Both the position numbers and the translations under genes were made by a program. The notes beneath the pieces are model-generated. The model did no database searches. It saw nothing but the letters and a program-made list of their open reading frames with translations, and had not been told where the DNA came from. A DNA stretch of 64,000 nucleotides from Candidatus Omnitrophota bacterium (lineage in GTDB: Bacteria > Omnitrophota > Gorgyraeia > Zapsychrales > JAKLDJ01): contig JAKLDJ010000006.1 in the NCBI GenBank assembly GCA_022703585.1, positions 5,696 to 69,695 on the forward strand, written 5' to 3'. Below are positions 1 to 17,745 of this stretch, piece by piece (position 1 is the first letter of the stretch; every line of letters begins with the position of its first letter).

Positions 1-291
1 AAAGATATTCTCGCTTTCGTCAAACCTGATACTTTCTTTCGTTGCCGGTCTTAGAGTAGCCTTGCTTGGGATGAGCACATTTTGGATAGCTCCACTTCTC
101 CCGGCCCAAGAGAAGTTGAATTTTTCAGAAGCGGTGTCGATATGTTCACCCAGAGCCAAGCGCATCTTATCGATGTTGACCTTGCCTTCGGATATCGCTT
201 CCGGAAGAATCGCCTTGAGCTTTCCAAGCAACTCTGCCTTGATATCTGTGGATTCCCTGACAGCCTTTTGGGTTTTATTTTTCTTTGCCAT
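1..291 (-). CDS. Adenine-specific DNA methyltransferase, N-terminal part (type III Mod / type IIG-like); gene continues off the left edge
   Basis: Hand translation of the minus strand from ATG at 291-289 gives MAKKNKTQKAVRESTDIKAELLGKLKAILPEAISEGKVNIDKMRLALGEHIDTASEKFNFSWAGRSGAIQNVLIPSKATLRPATKESIRFDESENIF. The FxFxWxG(K/R) ... PSKxTL(K/R)P ... SENxF run matches the conserved N-terminus of N6-adenine RM methylases (Mod / PglX-like). It is absent from the ORF track because it is truncated by the window edge. Confidence 0.55.
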   Translation of the reverse strand, partial: MAKKNKTQKAVRESTDIKAELLGKLKAILPEAISEGKVNIDKMRLALGEHIDTASEKFNFSWAGRSGAIQNVLIPSKATLRPATKESIRFDESENIF

Positions 292-322
292 GTTTAGCCT
301 CTTTTTATGTTATGCAAATTGG

Positions 323-664
323 TCATAATTTCTTTGCTAATTTCTTGTATGATGCGTGATTTAGTGCGCCCCCGCAAGACGTTTCTTGAGCCTTTGTTAT
401 TAAAATTGACATGCGTCTATTCATCTTTAAGCTCTTTGGAGTAATTTTAATGCTTTTTATTGGTTCTCTTTTGCCTCTCTTGTGGTCGTTGATTTTTCGG
501 AGCAACGCTTGAAGCTCATCTTTGGCATATAGCCGATAATTATTAAAGGGATGCCGGTATGATTTGAGTTTGCCAGAGGAATCCCATCTCCTGAGCGTCA
601 TTTCAGAGACCCCCAGAAGTTCAGAGGCTTCTTTGATTGTTATATAATCGTCTATTTTCTTCAT
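323..664 (-). CDS. MerR/excisionase(Xis)-family helix-turn-helix DNA-binding protein
   Basis: ORF 323-682. The true ATG is at 664 (MKKIDDYITIKEASELLGVSEMTLRRWDSSGKL...YRLYAKDELQALL); the first in-frame start is a TTG. It has an N-terminal MerR-type HTH followed by a basic tail, and lies directly upstream of the methylase gene on the same strand. Confidence 0.6.
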   Translation of the reverse strand: MKKIDDYITIKEASELLGVSEMTLRRWDSSGKLKSYRHPFNNYRLYAKDELQALLRKINDHKRGKREPIKSIKITPKSLKMNRRMSILITKAQETSCGGALNHASYKKLAKKL

Positions 665-973
665 GTATATAACCTTTAACAAGATTATACACAGAAAAAA
701 ATAGAAATCAACACGAAGCGTCCTATCGTCTGTTCGTTATATTAAAATATCTTCATCCAAAACCATGGCGTTATCAGAAATAAAATTTCGCCTGAATCAA
801 GTGACCAGTCCCTGACCTAAGGCAGGACAAGAGTCGTTTATCATATTTTATATAGTGCTTAGCTTAGCAAGTCTGCCTCTCTCGCAGACTCTTTCGCTTT
901 CTCTTTGCTTACTCTTTATTAAAACCTTTGCGTTAGAGAAGCGAACGCTTATTTTAAGGAAAGAATATATTTA

Positions 974-1020
974 GGCATAGCAGAAGCGTAGGGGATAGCC
1001 TCAGCTATGCCTAATATATA
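974..1020 (-). terminator. Hairpin just downstream of the 1023-1364 gene (possible intrinsic terminator)
   Basis: Inverted repeat ttaggcatagc...gctatgcctaa followed by an A/T-rich run on the minus strand. Confidence 0.35.
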
Positions 1021-1022
1021 GT

Positions 1023-1364
1023 CTATTCTTGGATAAGCCGAGTGAAGTATTTAGTTTGGTTGCCAACGCCGGTTTTCTTGATGCCGACCATTGAACCGAA
1101 CGGATAACGTGCCATTTGCTCGGCCAAAATTCGACTGCCCCTGTCCCAACTCTGCCGGACGCCATTCGATTCAAAGATATAGCGCAGGCATTCACTTTTC
1201 CCACCGTCAAAACGATTTGGGATTTTCTCGACACCAAGAAATTTAACAATTTTCTCGGTATCGTCTGGAAGGGTGAAGAACTTTGAGTTTTTATTTATAA
1301 AATCATCGAAAATATCGCTACCGACACTCATAAATCCTCCTTGCGTTTTCAAGACGTTTTTCAT
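1023..1364 (-). CDS. Hypothetical small protein (gene D of the four-gene small-protein operon)
   Basis: ORF of 113 aa. The ATG at 1364 overlaps the stop of the upstream SpoVG-like gene (ATGA), and an alternative ATG at 1331 is preceded by AAGGAGG. I recognise no family. Confidence 0.5.
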   Translation of the reverse strand: MKNVLKTQGGFMSVGSDIFDDFINKNSKFFTLPDDTEKIVKFLGVEKIPNRFDGGKSECLRYIFESNGVRQSWDRGSRILAEQMARYPFGSMVGIKKTGVGNQTKYFTRLIQE

Positions 1365-1684
1365 TCATCCAGATAAGGCACGTAGTAGGTGCTTTCTGGG
1401 CCTCTCTTTGAGCCTTTGGCGATTTTGTCGATTTTATCGACTACTGCATTTGTTAGGTCAAGGGCTGTCTCTTTGTCGATAGGACAGAATGACTCGACCA
1501 TCAGGCCATGTGGTAATCTGATGACCGGATAGACTAATCGAAAACCTGACCCGTCAAGGCGTGTGAACACGCCTACTCCCTGAACTTTGAACCTGCCATC
1601 GATTACAAAGCTCGTGACGCCTACACGCCCCTTTTCATTTGGGGCGAGAGGGAAGAACTTGACCTCTTTCACTTCCACTTTCAT
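1361..1684 (-). CDS. SpoVG-like nucleic-acid-binding protein
   Basis: ATG at 1684 is preceded by GGAGGTGA at a 6-nt spacing; the ORF-track start at 1690 is a TTG. MKVEVKEVKFFPLAPNEKGRVGVTSFVIDGRFKVQGVGVFTRLDGSGFRLVYP resembles the SpoVG fold pattern (V..V..V...G...A.A.V.LD..F.V..I.V...G.F...P). Confidence 0.45.
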   Translation of the reverse strand: MKVEVKEVKFFPLAPNEKGRVGVTSFVIDGRFKVQGVGVFTRLDGSGFRLVYPVIRLPHGLMVESFCPIDKETALDLTNAVVDKIDKIAKGSKRGPESTYYVPYLDE

Positions 1685-1838
1685 TCTCAATCACCTCCTC
1701 AAACTCATTCCATTTGCGTAATAACCCGAAAAAGCGGCGCAAGCCAGAGCAGATTTCCGCTATTTCTTGAGGACTTAGCGGTCTGCCGTAGGCTTGCGCC
1801 CATTCCTCCTTCAGGTTATTTTTAGAATTTTTAGCCAT
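1635..1838 (-). CDS. Hypothetical small protein (gene B), uncertain
   Basis: ATG at 1838 (MAKNSKNNLKEEWAQAYGRPLSPQEIAEICSGLRRFFGLLRKWNEFEE...). It overlaps the SpoVG-like start by about 50 nt and has a weak RBS, so it may be spurious. Confidence 0.25.
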   Translation of the reverse strand: MAKNSKNNLKEEWAQAYGRPLSPQEIAEICSGLRRFFGLLRKWNEFEEVIENESGSERGQVLPSRPK

Positions 1839-1900
1839 TAAGAAACGTCGTATTGGACACCTTTGGTCACCCTCGCAGAAATAAGATAACCTAATAAATT

Positions 1901-2188
1901 TCAATCGGTTAATTTCTGCGGGTCGGATTTGAGATACTTTTCATACTTTGCCACAAAGTTCTCCATTTCATCCGTGGTAAACTGTAAAACAATAAAGGCC
2001 ATAAAGAGTAGTGAGTGGCCTTTGAGTGCCCAATACGGACGGCTTTGAGGCAGAAAACGAAACACCATGTGAAGCGTTTCTTCAACAAGATTCTGGCGCT
2101 CGGCAGGTATTATGAAATTAACCTGTGCAGGATTCTCGCCAGCATTTTGGAGAAGTTCTGATTTGATTCTTCTGTATAGTTCGCTCAT
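1901..2188 (-). CDS. Hypothetical protein (gene A, first gene of the small-protein operon)
   Basis: ATG at 2188 is preceded by AAAGGAGGTG at a 7-nt spacing (MSELYRRIKSELLQNAGENPAQVNFIIPAERQNLVEETL...). I recognise no family. Confidence 0.5.
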   Translation of the reverse strand: MSELYRRIKSELLQNAGENPAQVNFIIPAERQNLVEETLHMVFRFLPQSRPYWALKGHSLLFMAFIVLQFTTDEMENFVAKYEKYLKSDPQKLTD

Positions 2189-2239
2189 ATTTTTCACCTC
2201 CTTTCTGGGGAAAAACCTGTTTATCATTACTGCAGGCAA

Positions 2240-2505
2240 TTCTTCCCTTGCACATATTTATAGCAAGAAGGTTATAAATCTATCACTTGACGCAAAATAG
2301 TTTTAATTGTCTGGAAATAAATAACTTATAAAGCATGAATTTTATGTTATTCAAAACTGATGTATAAGGTTTGTGAGGATTTTCTGGCCTAGAGGGGGTG
2401 ATAAGACCTTAAAACTGGCTTAGGAGGGTATTTTTATTGTTTATATAGCTTAAAAGCGTATAATATTAATTATTAAGTTGATTAAACTCTATCTATAACT
2501 ATGTC
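2240..2505. promoter_or_regulatory. AT-rich divergent promoter region between the minus-strand small-protein operon and the plus-strand nuclease/Schlafen module
   Basis: A 266-nt non-coding, very AT-rich stretch lying between divergently oriented gene starts (2188 minus, 2506 plus). Confidence 0.5.
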
Positions 2506-3324
2506 ATGAAAATGAAAAGTAAGATTTTAAGAAAACTTATCGACGTTGAAATTAGATTAGGTTTCCTTCACATCCCCGCCGCAGGAATCGATTTGTTCCC
2601 CGAGAAAAACACCAAAATAAACGCCCTTGTAGATGGGGAATCCCGTCAATTAACTTACAATGCCACACATAGAAGAATCTTTGGCCTTACAAAATGGTAT
2701 TCGGATTGTCATGTAAAGGTTGGCGATGAGATTGAAATCGAAAAAGCAGGCGAGGAATACAAGCTAATATTTAATGCCGGTAAACTCGCTGAAACGCCCT
2801 TAAAGGAAGCCGAGACCTTGATTGATATTTCCGGCTTATCATCTCAGGCAAAGGGCAATATCGTTGAGGAACGGGTCAAGGAGCTTATTCTTTTGCAGGG
2901 ACAAGGGCTTTTGAGCGTTTATAGGCCGGTGACGGATACTGAGGGCATCGATTTGATTGTGCTGAAAAGCGGGATGTTTCAGCCGTTATTCTTGCAGATA
3001 AAAGGGCGTTTTAATGTTCAGAAAACCGGATACTTTTTAATGGATATCAGCAAGAAGACATTTACGGTGCATCATTCATATTTTGTAGTAGGCGCTTACT
3101 TTAATCCTCGTGAAATGGAAATCGATGAGCATTTGTTATTTGTTCCGAGTGAAGAAGTCGTCAAAGCTCCCATCGTGAAGTCGAATGTGGGGGAACGATA
3201 CCGGATTGCGAATCATCTCAATATGGATTCCAAAGGCCGTTGGGCCCCGCATTTGATTAAGAAATCCGATTTGGCAAGTAAGTTGTTGGAAAAGTTTGAG
3301 GAAATAGGGAAATATATTAAATAG
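2506..3324 (+). CDS. Restriction-endonuclease-like protein: N-terminal B3/EcoRII-N-like DNA-binding domain fused to an Mrr-cat-like PD-(D/E)xK nuclease domain
   Basis: N-terminal half: IRLGFLHIPAAGIDLFPEKNTKINALVDGESRQLTYNATHRRIFGLTKWYSDCHVKVGDEIEIEK fits the B3-like pseudobarrel pattern (grLxIPk..a...fP.....i.l.D..G..w.f.y......r.vLt.GW..Fv....l..GD.v.F). C-terminal half: VTDTEGIDLIVLKSG...LFLQIKGRF resembles the Mrr_cat motif GIDxI...D...(Q/E)xK(R). Confidence 0.55.
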   Translation: MKMKSKILRKLIDVEIRLGFLHIPAAGIDLFPEKNTKINALVDGESRQLTYNATHRRIFGLTKWYSDCHVKVGDEIEIEKAGEEYKLIFNAGKLAETPLKEAETLIDISGLSSQAKGNIVEERVKELILLQGQGLLSVYRPVTDTEGIDLIVLKSGMFQPLFLQIKGRFNVQKTGYFLMDISKKTFTVHHSYFVVGAYFNPREMEIDEHLLFVPSEEVVKAPIVKSNVGERYRIANHLNMDSKGRWAPHLIKKSDLASKLLEKFEEIGKYIK

Positions 3325-3335
3325 GAAATTACTCA

Positions 3336-5057
3336 ATGATTGATTCAGTTGATTCGATATTAAAAGAAATAGAGAACACTTCTTTAGTTGAGCACCGGCA
3401 TCCGAATATTGAATTGAAATCCAGTTGGGATGTCGATTACGGAAGAAAAGTCTGTGGTCTTGCAAACAAAATCGGCTTCTCAAATGCTTGGCTTGTGATA
3501 GGCATGAAGGATGATGGAATTTTGGTAGGAAATAACGAGGCATGGGCTAAAAATTGTGAACAAGTAGTATCTCAACATGCCAACCAATTTCTGAATCCAA
3601 TTCAGGCGATTAAACAAATATCTTGTCATCAAATAAATCAATCTTGGATAGTCGTTATTCATGTTCAGCCGCCCGGTGCTGTTACATACTGGCAAGGCAT
3701 TCCTTACAAAGCTTCTGGCACAACTTTTGCCGCCATGATACCCGAAGAAATCATGCAGTTGACTGTATCTTTGCCCGGATTAGAAGATTTTTCCGCACAG
3801 GAATGGAAAGGGAGATGCGAAGCTTCTTTAGTCGCAGGTTTTGCAGAAACTGTCAGCACGAAACGCTCTGAGGCGCAATTTGTGGATTTATCGAAGAGAA
3901 CCGCCGATGATGTATTAACTCGTTTAGCAATTGTTGATAAAAATGTCGTTCGTATCTTGTTTGGAGATTTCAAATTTCGGATTGTTTATTACAATGATTC
4001 CAATGAGCCAGTTGAAAATTCTTCACAGCAAGGATTAATTCGCTTGCTGAGTAGCGAATTTATGCAATCAATTCAACGGTGGGGACTTAAAAATATTCAA
4101 ACAGAAAGTGGGGCGGAGATAACTTTAGAGTCTTACCCATCTAAAGCACTGCGGGAAGCTTTGGCCAACACGGTTGCGCATTGCGCTTATTTTGAAAGGC
4201 AAGGAGAGGTGGTTGTAGAAGTGTATCCCGCAAAGTTATCCATAAGTAATCTTTGTTTGCCTGAATCAGCGCATTTTGCTAATAAATGGTTTTCAAGAAG
4301 CAGAAATACCGTTAATCGTTTGTTGATGGAAACCTTGAGACTCGGCGGTTATGTTGATGAGTTAGGGAGAGGCAAGAATCTTATTTTCTGTGAAAGTATT
4401 AAGGCGGGATTAAAACCTCCCATTGTTGAAATTGAAAAAGCCGGACAATACAGCCGATGGAGATTGCAATTATTTGGAGCTTCCCGTGACCCAATCCAAT
4501 TAAAACTACTTCAACGGATTAAAGATTTATATAAGGACGAGTATAAAGCAATGGTTGCTTATGCTCTTGTTCTTTGGAGCAATTTACCTGTTTCAAGAAT
4601 TTCTCAATTTATCGATGGTGAATCAAGAGCATATTTTGAAGAAATTCTTCAAGATATTGATGGCCCGGTATTCTTTTATCAGAAAGAAGATAAACTTATC
4701 CTACATCGTTGGGTTAGGGTCTTGATGGAAGAAGGGAAGGATGCAAAGTCATTTACACTTGCGGAGGAAGAAGGGTTGAGGAATTTTGCTTATGAAATGT
4801 GCACAAAATATGAGCACGGATATATTACTCCTAAGGAATTGAGACGATTAGCGCATTTAGGCGAAAGCAACTCTGAGCAACAATTAAGCTCTGAATTGTT
4901 AAGTAAATGGCGGAAAGAAGGACATGTAGAATTTCTGAGGCGGGGGAAATACCGATTCAAAGAGCCGGTAAAACCACCGGAGGCTTGGTCAGCTCTCCTT
5001 GATAGGTTATTAAAAGATTCAACAAGTAGTGCATTAGGAAATACGGCCAATGAATAA
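3336..5057 (+). CDS. Schlafen-like AlbA_2 domain + HATPase_c_4 (RecG-C-terminal-like) + C-terminal winged-helix-like extension protein
   Basis: N-terminus: EHRHPNIELKSSWDV...VCGLANKIGFSNAWLVIGMKDDGILVG...VVIHVQPPGAVTYWQGIPYKASGTTFAAMIPEEIMQL matches the AlbA_2 (PF04326-type) pattern. Middle: ALREALANTVAHCAYFERQGEVVVEVYPAKLSISN...RNTVNRLLMETLRLGGYVDELGRGKNLIFCESIKAGLKPPIVE matches the HATPase_c_4 (PF13749-type) pattern. It starts 12 bp after the nuclease gene, so the two are probably one operon. Confidence 0.7.
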   Translation: MIDSVDSILKEIENTSLVEHRHPNIELKSSWDVDYGRKVCGLANKIGFSNAWLVIGMKDDGILVGNNEAWAKNCEQVVSQHANQFLNPIQAIKQISCHQINQSWIVVIHVQPPGAVTYWQGIPYKASGTTFAAMIPEEIMQLTVSLPGLEDFSAQEWKGRCEASLVAGFAETVSTKRSEAQFVDLSKRTADDVLTRLAIVDKNVVRILFGDFKFRIVYYNDSNEPVENSSQQGLIRLLSSEFMQSIQRWGLKNIQTESGAEITLESYPSKALREALANTVAHCAYFERQGEVVVEVYPAKLSISNLCLPESAHFANKWFSRSRNTVNRLLMETLRLGGYVDELGRGKNLIFCESIKAGLKPPIVEIEKAGQYSRWRLQLFGASRDPIQLKLLQRIKDLYKDEYKAMVAYALVLWSNLPVSRISQFIDGESRAYFEEILQDIDGPVFFYQKEDKLILHRWVRVLMEEGKDAKSFTLAEEEGLRNFAYEMCTKYEHGYITPKELRRLAHLGESNSEQQLSSELLSKWRKEGHVEFLRRGKYRFKEPVKPPEAWSALLDRLLKDSTSSALGNTANE

Positions 5058-5304
5058 GCAAGAAGCTGTTTACGCAATTGAACTGTTTTATGAAAAAGTC
5101 GATGAAGATTTAGCCTAAGTCCAAAGTAGGCCGAGGGTATCTTGAACGGCTTGACTCAAACCGTTCAAGGTGAGACGACTCGTCAGACCTTAAATTGAAA
5201 TTGCAAGCGACTCAACAAGCGAATCCGTAACATAGGCTTCTTCCGATACACAATAAGCCTTAAACTGCTCTAAGAAGTTCCTGAAATCGTCCGCTTGGGG
5301 GAGT

Positions 5305-5350
5305 ATTTAATAAAAAGGCCGCCTTGAAAGGCGGCCTTTTTATTAAATAG
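5305..5350. terminator. Bidirectional intrinsic terminator hairpin
   Basis: tatttaataaaaaGGCCGCCttgaaaGGCGGCCtttttattaaata: a GC stem flanked by an A-tract and a T-tract. Confidence 0.6.
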
Positions 5351-5460
5351 TTCCTCTGCGTTAAGAGGTACCCAGTACCCGAAGGGTGCGTTCGCCGGGA
5401 GCGAAGCGACCAGCACTTGTTACCCGGAGGGTAGAACAAGTGAGCCCTCGCGGGGGAGTT

Positions 5461-5506
5461 AATATTTAAAAGGGGCCACCCAAAGGGTGGCCCCTTTTAA
5501 ATATAA
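5461..5506. terminator. Bidirectional intrinsic terminator hairpin (end of repeat unit A)
   Basis: aaaaGGGGCCACCCaaaGGGTGGCCCCtttt. Confidence 0.55.
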
Positions 5507-5625
5507 TCCTTACGAGACGAAGAACCTGTCCGAAGGACGGGTTCGCTAGCGATCACGCCAAGGGCGGGGGAGCAGTCCCGAGGCGCAAAGCGACGAGGGA
5601 AGCCCTCGCGGGGGAGTCAAGTGAA

Positions 5626-5664
5626 ATAACAAGGGCCGCCTTTTAAGGCGGCCCTTGTTTGTAA
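5626..5664 (-). terminator. Intrinsic terminator downstream of the minus-strand 5684-6049 gene (end of repeat unit B)
   Basis: aacaaGGGCCGCCttttaaGGCGGCCCttgtt. Confidence 0.55.
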
Positions 5665-5683
5665 ATATCTATTGATAAACGGA

Positions 5684-6049
5684 CTACTTTTTCACTTTCT
5701 GTTCGTCACTCAAGAAGTGAGTCTGCACTCCTCTTTTAACGTATTCGGGCTGAATAACTGAGCCGTAGTTTTCGGGATTCGGAATCGGGCAGGTGACGAT
5801 GTCCCATACACCGGAAGCGCCGCGGGCTACTCCCCAAAACAGGCCTTTAAAAAGACCGACAACGATGCCGATACCGGCATTTTTGCTTTCCTTCCATTCG
5901 GTGTCGATATTCTGCGGTATTTCGAGTACAGCCGAAAGTACATTTGTTGCTCCGCGGGCCAATTTATCCTTCGGCTCACCGGCAGACGCGGATGTTACCA
6001 GACTGAAACACAACGCACCACACACCACCAACGCTACTAGAATCTTCAT
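5684..6049 (-). CDS. Small secreted protein, exosortase-system-associated TIGR04073-like family
   Basis: Signal peptide MKILVALVVCGALCFSLVTSASA, then KLARGATNVLSAVLEIPQNI...GIVVGLFKG...GVARGASGVWDIVTCP, which matches the R-G-x-N...E-I-P pattern I recall for that family. Confidence 0.45.
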   Translation of the reverse strand: MKILVALVVCGALCFSLVTSASAGEPKDKLARGATNVLSAVLEIPQNIDTEWKESKNAGIGIVVGLFKGLFWGVARGASGVWDIVTCPIPNPENYGSVIQPEYVKRGVQTHFLSDEQKVKK

Positions 6050-6204
6050 ATCTCCCTCCTTTTTAAAATAATTTAACAGAAATAAAAATTACCGTCAAGG
6101 AGTATTCTGTTATTTAAGCGAGAAGAGAATTTCTATTTTAAAGGCATCGTGTTATAATACATTCATGTTTTTGGTTAAGAAGAATAATTAAAAAGGAGAA
6201 CGAT

Positions 6205-6594
6205 ATGTCTAGAAAGATTGTTGCATTTGTCGGATTCGCTTTTCTGCTGCTTACTATTTACGGCTGTGTTGCGATTGTCGCCGGTGCGGTGGGGGGAGTA
6301 GGGACATCGGTGTGGCTTTCGGGCAAGTTGACCCAGGAATTTAATACTCCGTACGAGAAAACGATTAAGGCGGCCAGGTCGGCGCTGCAGTCGCTCAAAC
6401 TGAATATTACTAAAGAAACCAAGGACGATACGGTGGCCCAATTGCGCAGTGAGGATTCGAGCGGGAAGGACATCTGGGTCGATATCCGCAAGATTACCGA
6501 GACTTCGACCAGGGTGGAAGTCCGCGTGGGGGCAGTTAATTCGGACAAAGACGCGGCAACGACCATCCTTCAGAGAATCCAGAAGTATTTATAA
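6205..6594 (+). CDS. DUF3568-like lipoprotein
   Basis: AAAGGAGAA RBS. Signal peptide plus a lipobox (LLTIYGC). 129 aa with the overall DUF3568 pattern. A TATAAT -10 element sits at about 6154-6159. Confidence 0.55.
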   Translation: MSRKIVAFVGFAFLLLTIYGCVAIVAGAVGGVGTSVWLSGKLTQEFNTPYEKTIKAARSALQSLKLNITKETKDDTVAQLRSEDSSGKDIWVDIRKITETSTRVEVRVGAVNSDKDAATTILQRIQKYL

Positions 6595-6669
6595 GATAGC
6601 TCATATTGGTTTTTGCGGAAACGTGGTAAAGGTTTTTGTCCAGGCAAGCGTATAAACCGGAGATTAAAA

Positions 6670-6846
6670 ATGGTTGATATCGAGGCTTTGCGTTTGGCGT
6701 TATCGAAAGAGCAGGACGCCATAGAGATGTACCAAAAATTATTGCTGGAGCATCCTAATCTGGCGGATTTGATTAATTTCTTGATTACGGAAGAGCAGAA
6801 ACACAAGAAGCTGATAGAGAGAAAGATTACGGATTTAAGCCGATAG
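6670..6846 (+). CDS. Small ferritin-like / rubrerythrin-family protein
   Basis: ATG at 6670 (MVDIEALRLALSKEQDAIEMYQKLLLEHPNLADLINFLITEEQKHKKLIERKI): a short helical ferritin-like segment. A terminator follows at 6880-6918. Confidence 0.4.
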   Translation: MVDIEALRLALSKEQDAIEMYQKLLLEHPNLADLINFLITEEQKHKKLIERKITDLSR

Positions 6847-6879
6847 CAGGAAGCGAGCGAACGAAACGGTTCTGATTTG

Positions 6880-6918
6880 AAAAGGGGGCGCCCCGAAGGG
6901 GCGCCCCCTTTTTTCTCC
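6880..6918 (+). terminator. Intrinsic terminator
   Basis: GGGGGCGCCCCgaaGGGGCGCCCCCttttttct. Confidence 0.65.
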
Positions 6919-7032
6919 CCGCAGGGTTTTGAAGCGCATAATCTGCCGTAAAATACATTGCAAAAGATTTTTGATGAGATAGAATAAAAAAAACGCAACG
7001 GTTACCAAGTCTTCGTATCTAACCAAAGGAGC

Positions 7033-7368
7033 ATGTCCATGGCACAGGAGACCTTTATTGAGAAACAAGAGGAAAGTATCTCCATCCATATCTTTGCCGT
7101 ATCGGCTGCGCTGGTGGGGGTATGCCTGACCGTCATAGGTATTTTCAATATTGTTACGTCTCTTAAAAGAATGGAGACTTTTCTGGATGAGATGACTGCC
7201 GTCGATGCTGTTCTTTTTATGCTGGCCTGTATTTTTTCGTATATGGCGATTCGAACCAGGGAACGGCAGCCTAGGCTCCGTTTGGAAAAGATCGCAGACA
7301 GCGTGTTTTTGTCTGCGCTTTTTTTAATGGCTACAACCTGTGTGTTAATTGTTCTCCGATTGATCTAA
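7033..7368 (+). CDS. Hypothetical small membrane protein upstream of cstA
   Basis: 111 aa with 3-4 predicted hydrophobic helices. Ends 5 bp before the cstA start. Confidence 0.4.
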   Translation: MSMAQETFIEKQEESISIHIFAVSAALVGVCLTVIGIFNIVTSLKRMETFLDEMTAVDAVLFMLACIFSYMAIRTRERQPRLRLEKIADSVFLSALFLMATTCVLIVLRLI

Positions 7369-7372
7369 ACTC

Positions 7373-9169
7373 ATGCACGCCTTAACCCTGCTTACTGTCA
7401 GCTTGCTCGTATTTGCTCTAGCCTACCGGTTTTACGCGAAATTCATTATTACAAAAGTCCTTGTTTTTGACGACAAAAGACCGACGCCTGCCCATACCTT
7501 GCGCGACGGGCAGGATTATCACCCTACCAATAAATATGTTCTTTTTGGCCATCATTTTGCGGCAATTTCCGGGGCGGGGCCATTAGTCGGCCCGGTCCTG
7601 GCGGCGCAATTCGGATTTCTCCCCGGGTTTTTATGGATATTGATCGGCGCGGTCCTGGGAGGGGCGGTGCACGACATGGTGATTCTTTTTGCCTCGGTGA
7701 GGACTAAGGGGCTTTCATTAACCAGGCTGGCCCGAAAAAGTATTGGGCCGACGGCAGGGTTGGTGACAGGGATAGCCATCCTTTTTATCATTATTACGGC
7801 CTTGGCTGGGCTTGCCTTGGTCGTGGTCAATGCCCTTAATGAAAGTGCCTGGGCAACTTTTACCATCGTGATGACGATCCCGGCGGCTTTCTTGGTTGCC
7901 TTGTATATGTATAAACTACGCCCGGGAAAAATTATCGAGGCCTCGCTGCTGGGGATGGTTGTTGTTATGGCGGGGGTTGTATTCGGTGAGCCGTTATCAA
8001 GGTCGGGATTTGGGCAGTATTTCTTGCTTTCTAAACCCGCGCTTTCTGTTGCCTTGCCGGTGTACGGCTGTATTGCCTCAATCCTGCCGGTGTGGCTTTT
8101 GCTGTGCCCGCGCGATTATTTAAGTTCCTACATGAAAATCGGGACCATCGGTCTTTTAGCGGTTGGAATAGTCATTGTTAACCCTCAGCTTAAAATGCCG
8201 GCGGTGACAAGCTTCATACACGGCGGCGGGCCGATTATTCCGGGTAAGGTTTGGCCGTTTGTGTGCATAACCATTGCCTGCGGGGCGATTAGCGGCTTTC
8301 ACAGCTTGATCAGCTCGGGGACAACTCCCAAGATGATTAGCCGGGAATCGGAAATACGGATGATCGGTTTCGGGGCGATGCTTGTCGAGGCGGTTGTTTC
8401 TATCATGGCGTTGATTGCGGCTACCGTGCTTTTGCCGGGGGATTATTTTGCTATTAATGTGCCGGTGGAGGTATTTCATAAATTGGGATTAAGCACGGTG
8501 CATCTTGCGGAAATCGAAAAAATGACAGGCGAGGCCTTGGCCGGGCGCACCGGAGGCGCTGTTTCGTTGGCCGCGGGGATGTCGGTTATTTTATCGTCAA
8601 TCCCGGGAATGAAGCATCTCATGGGATATTGGTATCATTTTGCAATCATGTTTGAGGCGCTGTTTATTTTGACAACGGTGGATACCGGCACGCGGGTGGC
8701 CCGTTATATCCTTCAAGAACTTGCCAAGCTGGCAAGGCCCCGCTGGCAAGGGGCAAGCAGTTTGCCCGGGGTTATCACAACCAGCATTTTAATCAGTTTT
8801 CTCTGGGGATATTTAGTCTATAACGGAGATATTTCCACTATCTGGCCGATGTTTGGGGTGGCCAACCAGCTTTTGGCTACTCTGGCGCTATTAGTGGGGA
8901 CAATGTATATCCTCAAGCATTCCAAGCGATGGAGCTATGGATTGATCACATTTTTGCCGGCGTTATTTATGTTTGCAACAACCGTCGTTGCGGGAATATT
9001 AAATATTACGGGAAATTACTTACCCAAACACACCTTCCAGGGGAATCTCAATGCGGCCCTTTCGGGAATCATGATTATTCTCGTGGTTATCGTATTTCTT
9101 GAAACCTTAAAAAAGATGTATAGGCTGCGGATAACAGGCCTAGGCGTACCGAAAATAAAAGCAGCGTAA
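7373..9169 (+). CDS. cstA: Carbon starvation protein A (peptide transporter CstA family)
   Basis: FGHHFAAISGAGPLVGPVLAAQFGFLPGFLWILIGAVLGGAVHDMVILFASVR and the overall 598-aa polytopic membrane protein are typical of CstA. Confidence 0.9.
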   Translation: MHALTLLTVSLLVFALAYRFYAKFIITKVLVFDDKRPTPAHTLRDGQDYHPTNKYVLFGHHFAAISGAGPLVGPVLAAQFGFLPGFLWILIGAVLGGAVHDMVILFASVRTKGLSLTRLARKSIGPTAGLVTGIAILFIIITALAGLALVVVNALNESAWATFTIVMTIPAAFLVALYMYKLRPGKIIEASLLGMVVVMAGVVFGEPLSRSGFGQYFLLSKPALSVALPVYGCIASILPVWLLLCPRDYLSSYMKIGTIGLLAVGIVIVNPQLKMPAVTSFIHGGGPIIPGKVWPFVCITIACGAISGFHSLISSGTTPKMISRESEIRMIGFGAMLVEAVVSIMALIAATVLLPGDYFAINVPVEVFHKLGLSTVHLAEIEKMTGEALAGRTGGAVSLAAGMSVILSSIPGMKHLMGYWYHFAIMFEALFILTTVDTGTRVARYILQELAKLARPRWQGASSLPGVITTSILISFLWGYLVYNGDISTIWPMFGVANQLLATLALLVGTMYILKHSKRWSYGLITFLPALFMFATTVVAGILNITGNYLPKHTFQGNLNAALSGIMIILVVIVFLETLKKMYRLRITGLGVPKIKAA

Positions 9170-17459: not shown

Positions 17460-17745
17460 TAATCGATTTTGATACGTTCGACGGCGTCCGAACCCGCCTT
17501 AAGGGGTGGGGTTCGGACGCCGCTCAGTATCAACCCTGAGCAAACCCCGGGCTTTAGTCCGGGGAGCGTCGAATGGGTTGATTTCTGTGCCCTATAATTT
17601 ACAGAAATCAAATGAGAGCGGGGGATCCAGGAAATACGATCAATTAAGATCTTGGGGCGAATATGAAAATTAGGGCCCAACAGCCCGAGCCCGACAGCTA
17701 ACCCCGTCAGCCTAGTGTTGAGAGAGCAAGCCAAAGAAATCGCTC
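17460..17745 (+). ncRNA. Highly structured intergenic leader / candidate cis-regulatory RNA upstream of the amino-acid permease gene
   Basis: Nested inverted repeats: gacggcgtccgaaccc/gggttcggacgccg (17479-17522), tcaaccc...gggttga (17530-17590), ccccggg/ccgggg, atttctgt/acagaaat, and a weak hairpin plus T-run at 17719-17760. Confidence 0.3.

Follow-up and report, generated by a model that had tools for sequence, protein, structure and literature searches.

The window analysed here, 64,000 nt of contig JAKLDJ010000006.1 from a Candidatus Omnitrophota bacterium (assembly GCA_022703585.1), contains near its left end two tandem units, A and B, which carry no open reading frames (ORFs) and close with the same 17-nt box, AGCCCTCGCGGGGGAGT. 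The box occurs exactly twice in the window (5443–5459 and 5601–5617, 158 nt apart); chance alone would give 0.14 matches when up to three mismatches are tolerated, and 1 of 100 shuffles reached two or more. A preliminary description of this DNA had pointed to three hairpins with a GC stem between an A-tract and a T-tract, and both the sequence and a repeat finder confirm them as near-perfect palindromes with a GC core between these tracts. The region is laid out as follows.

5275–5296, plus strand: island-side half (P arm) of the distal island junction, aagttcctgaaatcgtccgcttg, of motif class CCAGTTGCAAAAYTCGTCCACTWG
5297–5303, plus strand: core GGGGGAG of the distal junction, a direct repeat of the tRNA-Asn acceptor 3' strand plus discriminator
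5304–5350, both strands: terminator 1 (inverted repeat I1; arms 5299–5325 and 5328–5354, 27 nt, 93% complementary)
5351–5442, plus strand: body of unit A, whose 5' strand TTCCTCTGCG (5351–5360) pairs with CGCGGGGGAG in the box
About 5389–5407 (GTTCGC/GCGAA) and 5414–5442 (CACTTGTT/AACAAGTG), plus strand: internal hairpins of unit A
5443–5459, plus strand: box A, tRNA-Asn nucleotides 58–73 (AGCCCTCGCGGGGGAG) plus T, an exact match
5460–5506: terminator 2 (inverted repeat I3; arms 5462–5481 and 5485–5504, 20 nt, 100%)
5506–5600, plus strand: body of unit B (beta class), with a second stem-loop around GGCGCAAAGCG
5522–5544, plus strand: hairpin H1 of unit B, GAACCTGTCC-GAA-GGACGGGTTC
5601–5617, plus strand: box B, tRNA-Asn nucleotides 58–73 plus T, an exact match
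5618–5664, bidirectional: terminator 3 (inverted repeat I4; arms 5628–5642 and 5645–5659, 15 nt, 100%)

The shared box is the 3' end of the resident tRNA-Asn(GUU): it comprises the end of the T-loop, the 3' strand of the T-stem, the 3' strand of the acceptor stem and the discriminator G, and its final T is the first base past the tRNA gene. We equate it with tRNA-Asn nucleotides 58–73 because Rfam RF00005, from which the tRNA limits were taken, places the tRNA at 6953–7025 in locus L045; the source contig shows this identity, as do more than 30 Omnitrophota loci. Exact-protein look-ups led to the source locus, L206 (JGI 3300009776 Ga0116154_10000034; window position x is L206rc position x + 9678), whose place in Omnitrophota is confirmed by RecR homologues; there, the gene order is dnaX, recR, tRNA-Asn(gtt) (L206rc 3917–3990) and then an island that ends at window position 5303. 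The conserved box is thus no motif specific to a small RNA (sRNA) but the tRNA-Asn 3' end, the recombination target of this island.

When 185,579 species genomes were scanned, 84 stretches matched the 17-mer. Roughly half are chance matches in the high-GC coding DNA of Streptomyces and similar genomes, and about 45 of the 84 come from Candidatus Omnitrophota metagenome-assembled genomes (MAGs), some of them labelled 'uncultured Planctomycetales'; the 17-mer was absent from the viral contig set scanned. When metagenomes were scanned for the pattern without its final T, only L157 and L204 were real among the matches listed, nearly all the others listed being chance matches in high-GC coding DNA. 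The 17-mer has a number of roles in the Omnitrophota MAGs: firstly, it is the 3' end of tRNA-Asn(GUU); secondly, it is the 3' end of tRNA-Asn(GUU) split by a group I intron; thirdly, it is the 3' end of 85–185-nt non-tRNA units that lie 3' of the tRNA and its terminator. This distribution bears on the earlier suggestion that the units are dispersed elements akin to repetitive extragenic palindromes or miniature inverted-repeat transposable elements (REP/MITE), which would likewise be short, ORF-less and rich in palindromes, with ends able to pair. However, a search for further copies of the boxes in the 64-kb window, mismatches allowed, found none beyond the two tandem copies; Omnitrophota-type copies elsewhere adjoin tRNA-Asn or sit in GGGGAG-bounded arrays like those found 3' of it (some retrieved loci not extending to the tRNA); and the 'terminal repeat' is simply the tRNA end. 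We regard a REP/MITE origin as very improbable.

The GC-rich folds followed by terminators also recall the remnant of a riboswitch or leader, or an attenuator of the downstream gene. The first chromosomal gene past the array (5684–6049, minus strand; exosortase-associated TIGR04073 family, with no record in an exact-protein look-up) is, however, convergent with the units, and terminator 3 also closes it according to minus-strand terminator prediction. We ran Rfam 15 at the gathering score over the whole window and six related loci, and at E ≤ 10 over 4950–5800: at the gathering score neither the window repeats nor the units in the six loci matched any family, and at E ≤ 10 the matches were sub-threshold and terminator-driven (STnc430, Thr/Phe leaders and similar). 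The window's single real riboswitch, for c-di-AMP (RF00379; 56.6 bits against a gathering score of 38), lies elsewhere, at 17590–17729 on the plus strand. With a convergent next gene and nothing but noise from Rfam, a riboswitch-like leader can be regarded as excluded for all practical purposes.

The island is 10,992 bp long and of low GC content (0.39–0.40 at window 2001–5000 as compared to about 0.46 over most of the remaining window), and has its start directly 3' of tRNA-Asn, 5,688 nt before window position 1. It encodes a large serine recombinase, Type III Res and Mod, an HTH_17 excisionase-like gene, small ORFs and a Schlafen AlbA_2/AbiEi-like protein. With a slash marking the end of the core, its proximal junction reads ...GAGCCCTCGCG-GGGGGAG/CATTTCG... 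plus a hairpin, with attL (...gagccctcgcgGGGGAG/Catttcg) at L206rc 3974–3990; the distal junction reads ...AAATCGTCCGCTT-GGGGGAG/TATTTAATAAAAAGG..., with attR (...gcttgGGGGAG/Tatttaat) at L206rc 14976. The crossover is predicted to fall somewhere inside the core GGGGGAG. In boxes A and B, 16 nt (5443–5458 and 5601–5616) match the tRNA leftward of and through the core, and are followed by T and an A/T-rich palindrome arm. Motif class CCAGTTGCAAAAYTCGTCCACTWG, to which the P arm belongs, recurs in other Omnitrophota, where islands or cassettes have it at their right ends; it precedes GGGGAG-T plus a terminator in L003, L049, L066, L074 and L027.

Both mapped junctions show that the repeats had been placed at the island boundary exactly. 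Hairpin 1, by contrast, is no repeat unit like the others: only ...TCGTCCGCTTG-GGGGGAG-T (5275–5304), the right junction of the island, precedes it, and there is no third full unit. Near-identical TATTTAATAAAAAAGSC... sequences lie directly 3' of intact tRNA-Asn genes in L077 and L073; because of these terminators and the mapped junctions, we interpret the hairpin 1 region as the distal junction of the island joined to the normal terminator of tRNA-Asn. Terminator 1 would accordingly be a bidirectional palindromic intrinsic terminator that originally belonged to tRNA-Asn and was pushed away by the island.

That islands of this kind are mobile is shown by three comparisons among relatives. The island is absent from L209, a relative at the recR–tRNA-Asn...DUF3568–CstA locus whose RecR is 98% identical but whose flanks are only about 82–83% identical at the nucleotide level, which makes it a different species; there, a terminator comes next after the tRNA, then a unit similar to B whose 3' end is degenerate, and then two ORFs, a hairpin like terminator 3 (matching at L209 8455–8495) and DUF3568. 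L212, with an empty site, and L213, with an occupied site, encode the same RecR protein, and L218 carries another island, with a serine recombinase and a primase, at the same site. The stretch between tRNA-Asn and DUF3568 is hypervariable among relatives with 82–83% identical flanks.

Unit ends, too, are found joined to islands. L055 and L204, from different assemblies, share three 100%-identical segments in changed order. L204 runs from the tRNA to CCA-terminator B–island–right arm, then terminator A–beta unit and then terminator C, its island containing a serine recombinase, a HindIII restriction-modification system and GmrSD; L055 runs from the tRNA to terminator A–beta unit and then CCA-terminator B–island. 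In L204 the same large serine recombinase (LSR) island adjoins the tRNA, in L055 it adjoins a beta unit at its end, and both junctions are base-for-base equal. Of the 41 tRNA ends in Omnitrophota-type loci, 5 are followed by an island-type C/CCA junction, as are 5 of the 19 unit ends; in other Omnitrophota, islands are about as frequent at such unit ends as at the tRNA.

We consider it probable that site-specific integration has a hot spot at tRNA-Asn(GUU) and that window 5275–5670 is the far edge of this hot spot, with units A and B as spare docking sites. The box would be kept because of its match to that half of the recombinase's attB which lies on the tRNA side, with the A/T-rich arm of the terminator supplying the other half; box and arm would together rebuild attB, so that each module would be a spare docking site. 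Excision and re-integration would shuffle islands and modules into a cassette-like array, with the hairpins acting as Rho-independent terminators that insulate modules and neighbouring genes. The unit bodies would fold on the plus strand, most likely as RNA, with their 5' end pairing with the tRNA-like 3' strand.

These units belong to a wider family. Among 33 non-redundant tRNA-Asn loci whose downstream sequence is long enough, 10 have a GGGGAG-ended unit within the next 400 nt; further units lie deeper in the arrays.

Alpha class, about 142 nt: L009 (two copies), L054 (two copies), L075, L081 and L085, with variants in L037, L073 and L077
Short alpha form: L053, which unit A resembles
Beta class: L003 = L055 = L204, L045/L049, L069, L083, L209 and unit B

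The alpha class folds as a three-way junction with compensatory changes at 18 of 43 pairs; 91% of cells are paired, as compared to 33–46% with the partners slid, and none of 500 shuffles comes up to the observed values. It has 30 G-U cells against 1 A-C cell, and its consensus fold energy is -49.2 kcal/mol on the plus strand versus -37.8 on the minus strand, a bias that makes the fold specific to the tRNA-sense strand, as for RNA. Hairpin H1 of the beta class occurs in six different sequences, all paired, with compensatory changes in L003, L045, L069, L083 and L209, and BLASTN ties unit B to L003 and L055 across H1 (E = 1e-4). Unit A has one close relative only, L053: compared by eye, the two have CGAAGGG, an apical GC hairpin, CGACC and GGAGGG in common, and unit A adds the hairpin at 5414–5442. 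Pairing of the unit 5' end with the box is highly significant in alpha units, L045 and L157; these values come from RNAduplex against shuffles, used in place of an ungapped-helix scan of unit 5' ends against the G-rich box, which gave the same result as shuffles and was dropped.

The single-sequence fold z-scores of A and B are only about -2. The minimum free energy fold of unit A has a 10-bp closing helix (z = -2.25), and its 5'/3' duplex of -19.4 kcal/mol is marginal, 2.4% of shuffles being as good (RNAduplex). Small conserved boxes are indeed common to both units, namely CCGAAGGNNGSGTTCGC (5379–5395 and 5530–5546; expectation 0.34, with 4 of 100 shuffles reaching 2) and GCRAAGCGAC (repeat family D3). 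Compared without the 17-mer, the bodies match at 59 of 104 aligned columns (z = 3.0, with an equally high score in 1 of 500 shuffles), which argues that A and B are old, strongly diverged homologues and agrees with the original view that no recent duplication is involved. The companion proposal of structured RNA under selection holds in part: hairpins are kept through compensatory changes in other genomes, but A and B alone reach a z of only about -2.

Strand-specific, covarying structure in the alpha class and in beta H1 is what one would expect if the units were structured sRNAs that mimic the tRNA-Asn acceptor helix and are processed by RNase P, RNase Z and the CCA-adding enzyme. They would then be co-transcribed with the tRNA or reached by read-through and would function at the RNA level, with their use by the recombinase a side effect. 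All units are co-oriented with the tRNA and end in an intrinsic terminator; their 5' ends are like that of the tRNA (TCCTCTG in A, TCCCCTG in the tRNA); CCA is encoded after the discriminator in L055, L073 and L075; and hairpins in the tRNA-Asn leader (TTCCCCTG...CTGGGGAA) are inexplicable as recombination scars. However, no convincing promoter was found for units A and B, where promoter-like matches are weak and badly placed, and the only -10-like hexamers would start transcripts inside the 5' strand. ARAGORN and Rfam detect no tRNA-like fold (ARAGORN finds no tRNA in the 64-kb window and, with introns allowed, none over units in related loci; RF00005 has zero matches at E ≤ 10 over the region of units A and B, 4950–5800). 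The 3' strand is invariant rather than covarying, A and B taken by themselves have modest fold z-scores, and the CCA is equally well explained as an island-side junction. We hold such RNA mimicry to be possible but rather unlikely; independent tandem sRNA genes are also possible.

The leader hairpins lie in the transcribed leader of tRNA-Asn, between promoter and gene; they are long, opening with the tRNA's own 5' acceptor strand TTCCCCTG and closing with CTGGGGAA, and so mimic the acceptor stem on the 5' side of the tRNA. Those of L206 and L209 differ by compensatory changes, and Rfam gave no match in the L045 leader, the sole leader scanned.

L206rc 3828–3885: leader hairpin, one copy
L209 6679–6735: leader hairpin
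L045 6688–6950: leader hairpins, four copies
L218 4655–4715: leader hairpin

The tRNA itself is interrupted in many Omnitrophota by a group I intron in the anticodon loop of tRNA-Asn(GUU), which Rfam RF00028 confirms in L009, L083 and L209; several of these introns hold an HNH-like ORF with CxxCH motifs. The tRNA-Asn of the window's genome is intronless, and on inspection the units show no similarity to the intron, from which they had been considered as possibly derived.

Intron-bearing tRNA-Asn(GUU) loci: L009, L015, L021, L039, L050, L058, L060, L061, L065
Intron-bearing loci, continued: L069, L073, L081, L083, L209, L212, L213, L218, L221

Several observations weigh against a role of A and B as docking sites. 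In no sample is unit A or B of the window itself occupied by an island; the island is present in all 14 of 14 contigs of this species, and among the three contigs shown it adjoins the tRNA (L206, L207) or the right end of another island (L208). The right half-sites after A and B are unlike the one after the tRNA. The 5'/3' closing helix of unit B is non-significant, with 21% of shuffles as good (RNAduplex), and the alpha covariance model R1 misses units A and B at E ≤ 10, so that neither is assigned to the alpha class. Finally, tRNA identity ends abruptly at nucleotides 56–58, an edge that looks more like an old T-loop crossover by a different type of element than like half-site selection, and the core has been lost in some units (L209, L069, L081), as decaying relics would show.

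Such an edge in the T-loop and such lost or degenerate cores would suit inert scars: right-end arms of earlier T-loop-integrating elements whose cargo has been lost, with the displaced tRNA-Asn 3' end and terminator attached. The hypervariable region between tRNA-Asn and DUF3568 would fit this history, as would L053, where a restriction-modification island ends straight in a short alpha body plus core, and the Dehalococcoides islands without integration modules, which have been described as cis-mobilizable or fixed (PMC3146451). On the other hand, compensatory substitutions keep the hairpins across genomes, unlike neutral decay; the tight layout of terminator, body and box is always kept; and unit ends are still used for integration. 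We therefore treat inert scars as a tentative alternative, doubtful beside the docking-site array.

The right ends of islands are of several types: the ~25-nt motif CCAGTTGCAAAAYTCGTCCACTWG, which is the window's type; a ~80-nt motif ending GGATTTTGGGGGTGACC; and the short alpha body of L053. Because like bodies form the right ends of cargo islands elsewhere, A and B may be cargo-less relatives of islands and not host inventions; the unit bodies may have originated as either, that is, as a host invention or as right ends of older T-loop-integrating elements without cargo. The ~80-nt motif is found on small recombinase-free cassettes (e.g. DUF4160/DUF2442), where it forms a hairpin, CCCAAAATGAC...GGATTTTGGG, and ends GGTGACC-GGGGAG.

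L009(-) 5130–5213 and 7860–7951: ~80-nt right-end motif
L075 3650–3714: ~80-nt right-end motif
L215 5570–5660: ~80-nt right-end motif
L217 2070–2160: ~80-nt right-end motif

L054 contains a 1,044-bp direct repeat (5990–7260), each copy of which consists of a CCA-terminator, an alpha unit, a terminator, a conserved leader (inverted repeat TCCGATT...AATCGGA) and an ORF6N-type ORF; in L085, the same alpha unit and leader stand before a different ORF. This arrangement suggests that an alpha unit can occupy the 5' side of cassettes. Another kind of junction is seen at L208rc 1–1667, from a different sample of the same population, where the proximal side of the island meets another element's right end, ...CTCGAGTCCAACGT-GGGGAG, in place of the tRNA, which indicates tandem accretion of a second island. 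Cargo in the arrays is of the usual defence and addiction type and includes HigBA-like, BrnTA-like and Zeta toxin-antitoxin systems, restriction-modification, SMODS, RhuM and Bro-N. Integrases are not enriched around the arrays, according to Pfam counts for two sets of 150 and 145 ORFs; only 2 of the 145 cargo-side ORFs matched Phage_integrase, one of them confirmed as L055:921–1961, whose counterpart L204:3887–4927 lies in the 100%-identical segment.

The recombinase of the island, a 501-aa protein with Resolvase, Recombinase and Zn_ribbon_recom domains, is encoded beside attL and has XisF and CcrB as its best NCBIfam matches.

L206:14887–16392 (+) = L206rc 3951–5456 (-), and L207:14887–16392: recombinase ORF
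L204:40–1542 (-), L218:4991–6649 (-) and L208:14887–16800: further recombinase ORFs

The ORF crosses the att core antisense into the tRNA, and its last residues (...EMLP-REGSNLGPIG*, the asterisk marking the stop) come from the antisense of the T-arm and acceptor of tRNA-Asn. The tail varies with the docking site: the protein has 637 aa in L208, and in the excised circle, where the antisense strand of the P arm (5275–5296) would encode the C-terminal tail, antisense translation predicts QADDFRNF...+35 aa. Differing tails are likewise predicted at units A and B. The end LPREGSNLGP is common to two recombinases that are 38% identical. Conceivably, though we would not expect it, the units and leader hairpins form a new class of folded tRNA-Asn acceptor-stem mimics, serving either as tRNA-like-processed RNAs (decoys, or processing/insulation signals) or as attC-like sites of an integron-like cassette platform at the tRNA-Asn locus, one that is operated by serine recombinases and has their C-terminal tail rewritten at each docking site.

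The remaining genes of the island's right-hand part, and their coordinates, are given below; gene predictions and Pfam families are those of the source contig.

1–5296: island, right-hand 5.3 kb
1–291, minus strand: Type III Mod gene, N-terminus
323–664, minus strand: HTH_17/MerR excisionase-like gene
2506–3324, plus strand: 272-aa ORF with no family match
3336–5057, plus strand: Schlafen AlbA_2/AbiEi-like ORF, 573 aa, with weak AlbA_2, HATPase_c_4 and AbiEi_4 matches

The last genes before the junction, those for the 272-aa and 573-aa proteins, may form a defence pair.

Several known systems resemble this array in part. SCCmec and pseudo-SCC composite arrays at rlmH (CcrAB/CcrC) are serine-recombinase cassettes stacked at one site. 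They, too, have repeated integration-site sequences between cassettes, each reusable as a target, but SCC elements target a protein gene at its end, and the SCC repeat is not known to include structured RNA-like spacers or terminators. With integron attC sites the units have in common arrays of small cassettes (toxin-antitoxin, defence, ORF-less), conserved ends around a variable folded middle and a strand-specific fold. Unlike attC, they show no R/L boxes (GTTRRRY/RYYYAAC) on reading the sequence, terminators follow the sites, and the anchor is a tRNA gene; no IntI was found among the ORFs of the arrays searched, the single tyrosine recombinase being Xer-like (23.5 bits against the integrase_gron cut-off of 265). 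A further comparison is with tRNA minihelices and tRNA-like processing elements, such as RNase P substrates and the t-elements of plant mitochondria. The units have a comparable acceptor-like helix, discriminator G and sometimes CCA without D or anticodon arms, but lack a T-loop, and their helix extends into the former T-stem strand. Genomic islands targeted to tRNA genes, with accretion or cis-mobilizable elements, likewise use the tRNA 3' end as attachment site, with borders marked by partial tRNA repeats and decayed, recombinase-free arrays carrying defence and toxin-antitoxin cargo; most of these systems rely on tyrosine recombinases and long identity segments, whereas the repeats here lie inside conserved folded modules. 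The tycheposons of Prochlorococcus (10.1101/2020.12.28.424599) are counted among these systems.

Of the described systems, the ssrA islands of Dehalococcoides come closest. They encode a CcrB-like serine integrase (DsiB) beside attL, target the T-loop/3' end of the transfer-messenger RNA (tmRNA) gene, and stack in tandem with 20-bp repeats between them, some without recombinase (PMC3146451, which also mentions the SCC arrays). Like them, the Omnitrophota islands have a CcrB/XisF-type recombinase on the reverse strand beside attL, insert at the 3' end, from T-loop to acceptor, of a tRNA-like gene present in single copy, and occur in tandem with 3'-end direct repeats between islands, some of them recombinase-free. 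Unlike them, the target is tRNA-Asn rather than tmRNA, the island's own repeat is only 7 nt long, and the recombinase ORF spans the core; moreover, the 16–17-nt repeats here lie within ~95-nt ORF-less structured, terminator-capped bodies, which are not described in PMC3146451.

The repeat is thus largely explained by known biology, as an att-site array at a tRNA integration hot spot, while the structured, terminator-capped module that carries the tRNA-end repeat appears undescribed. An odd repeat is thereby explained in ordinary terms, and a defence island has been located in an uncultured phylum together with its recombinase and its two junctions. The array also suggests that Omnitrophota share a hitherto undescribed family of structured modules, each capped by a terminator and associated with tRNA-Asn, at whose ends islands have demonstrably landed in other genomes. 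Should selection maintain these modules, be it as docking pads or as RNAs that mimic tRNA, they would exemplify how a host locus turns into a cassette platform without any integron integrase, and would be a natural source of attB variants for serine integrases of a new clade.

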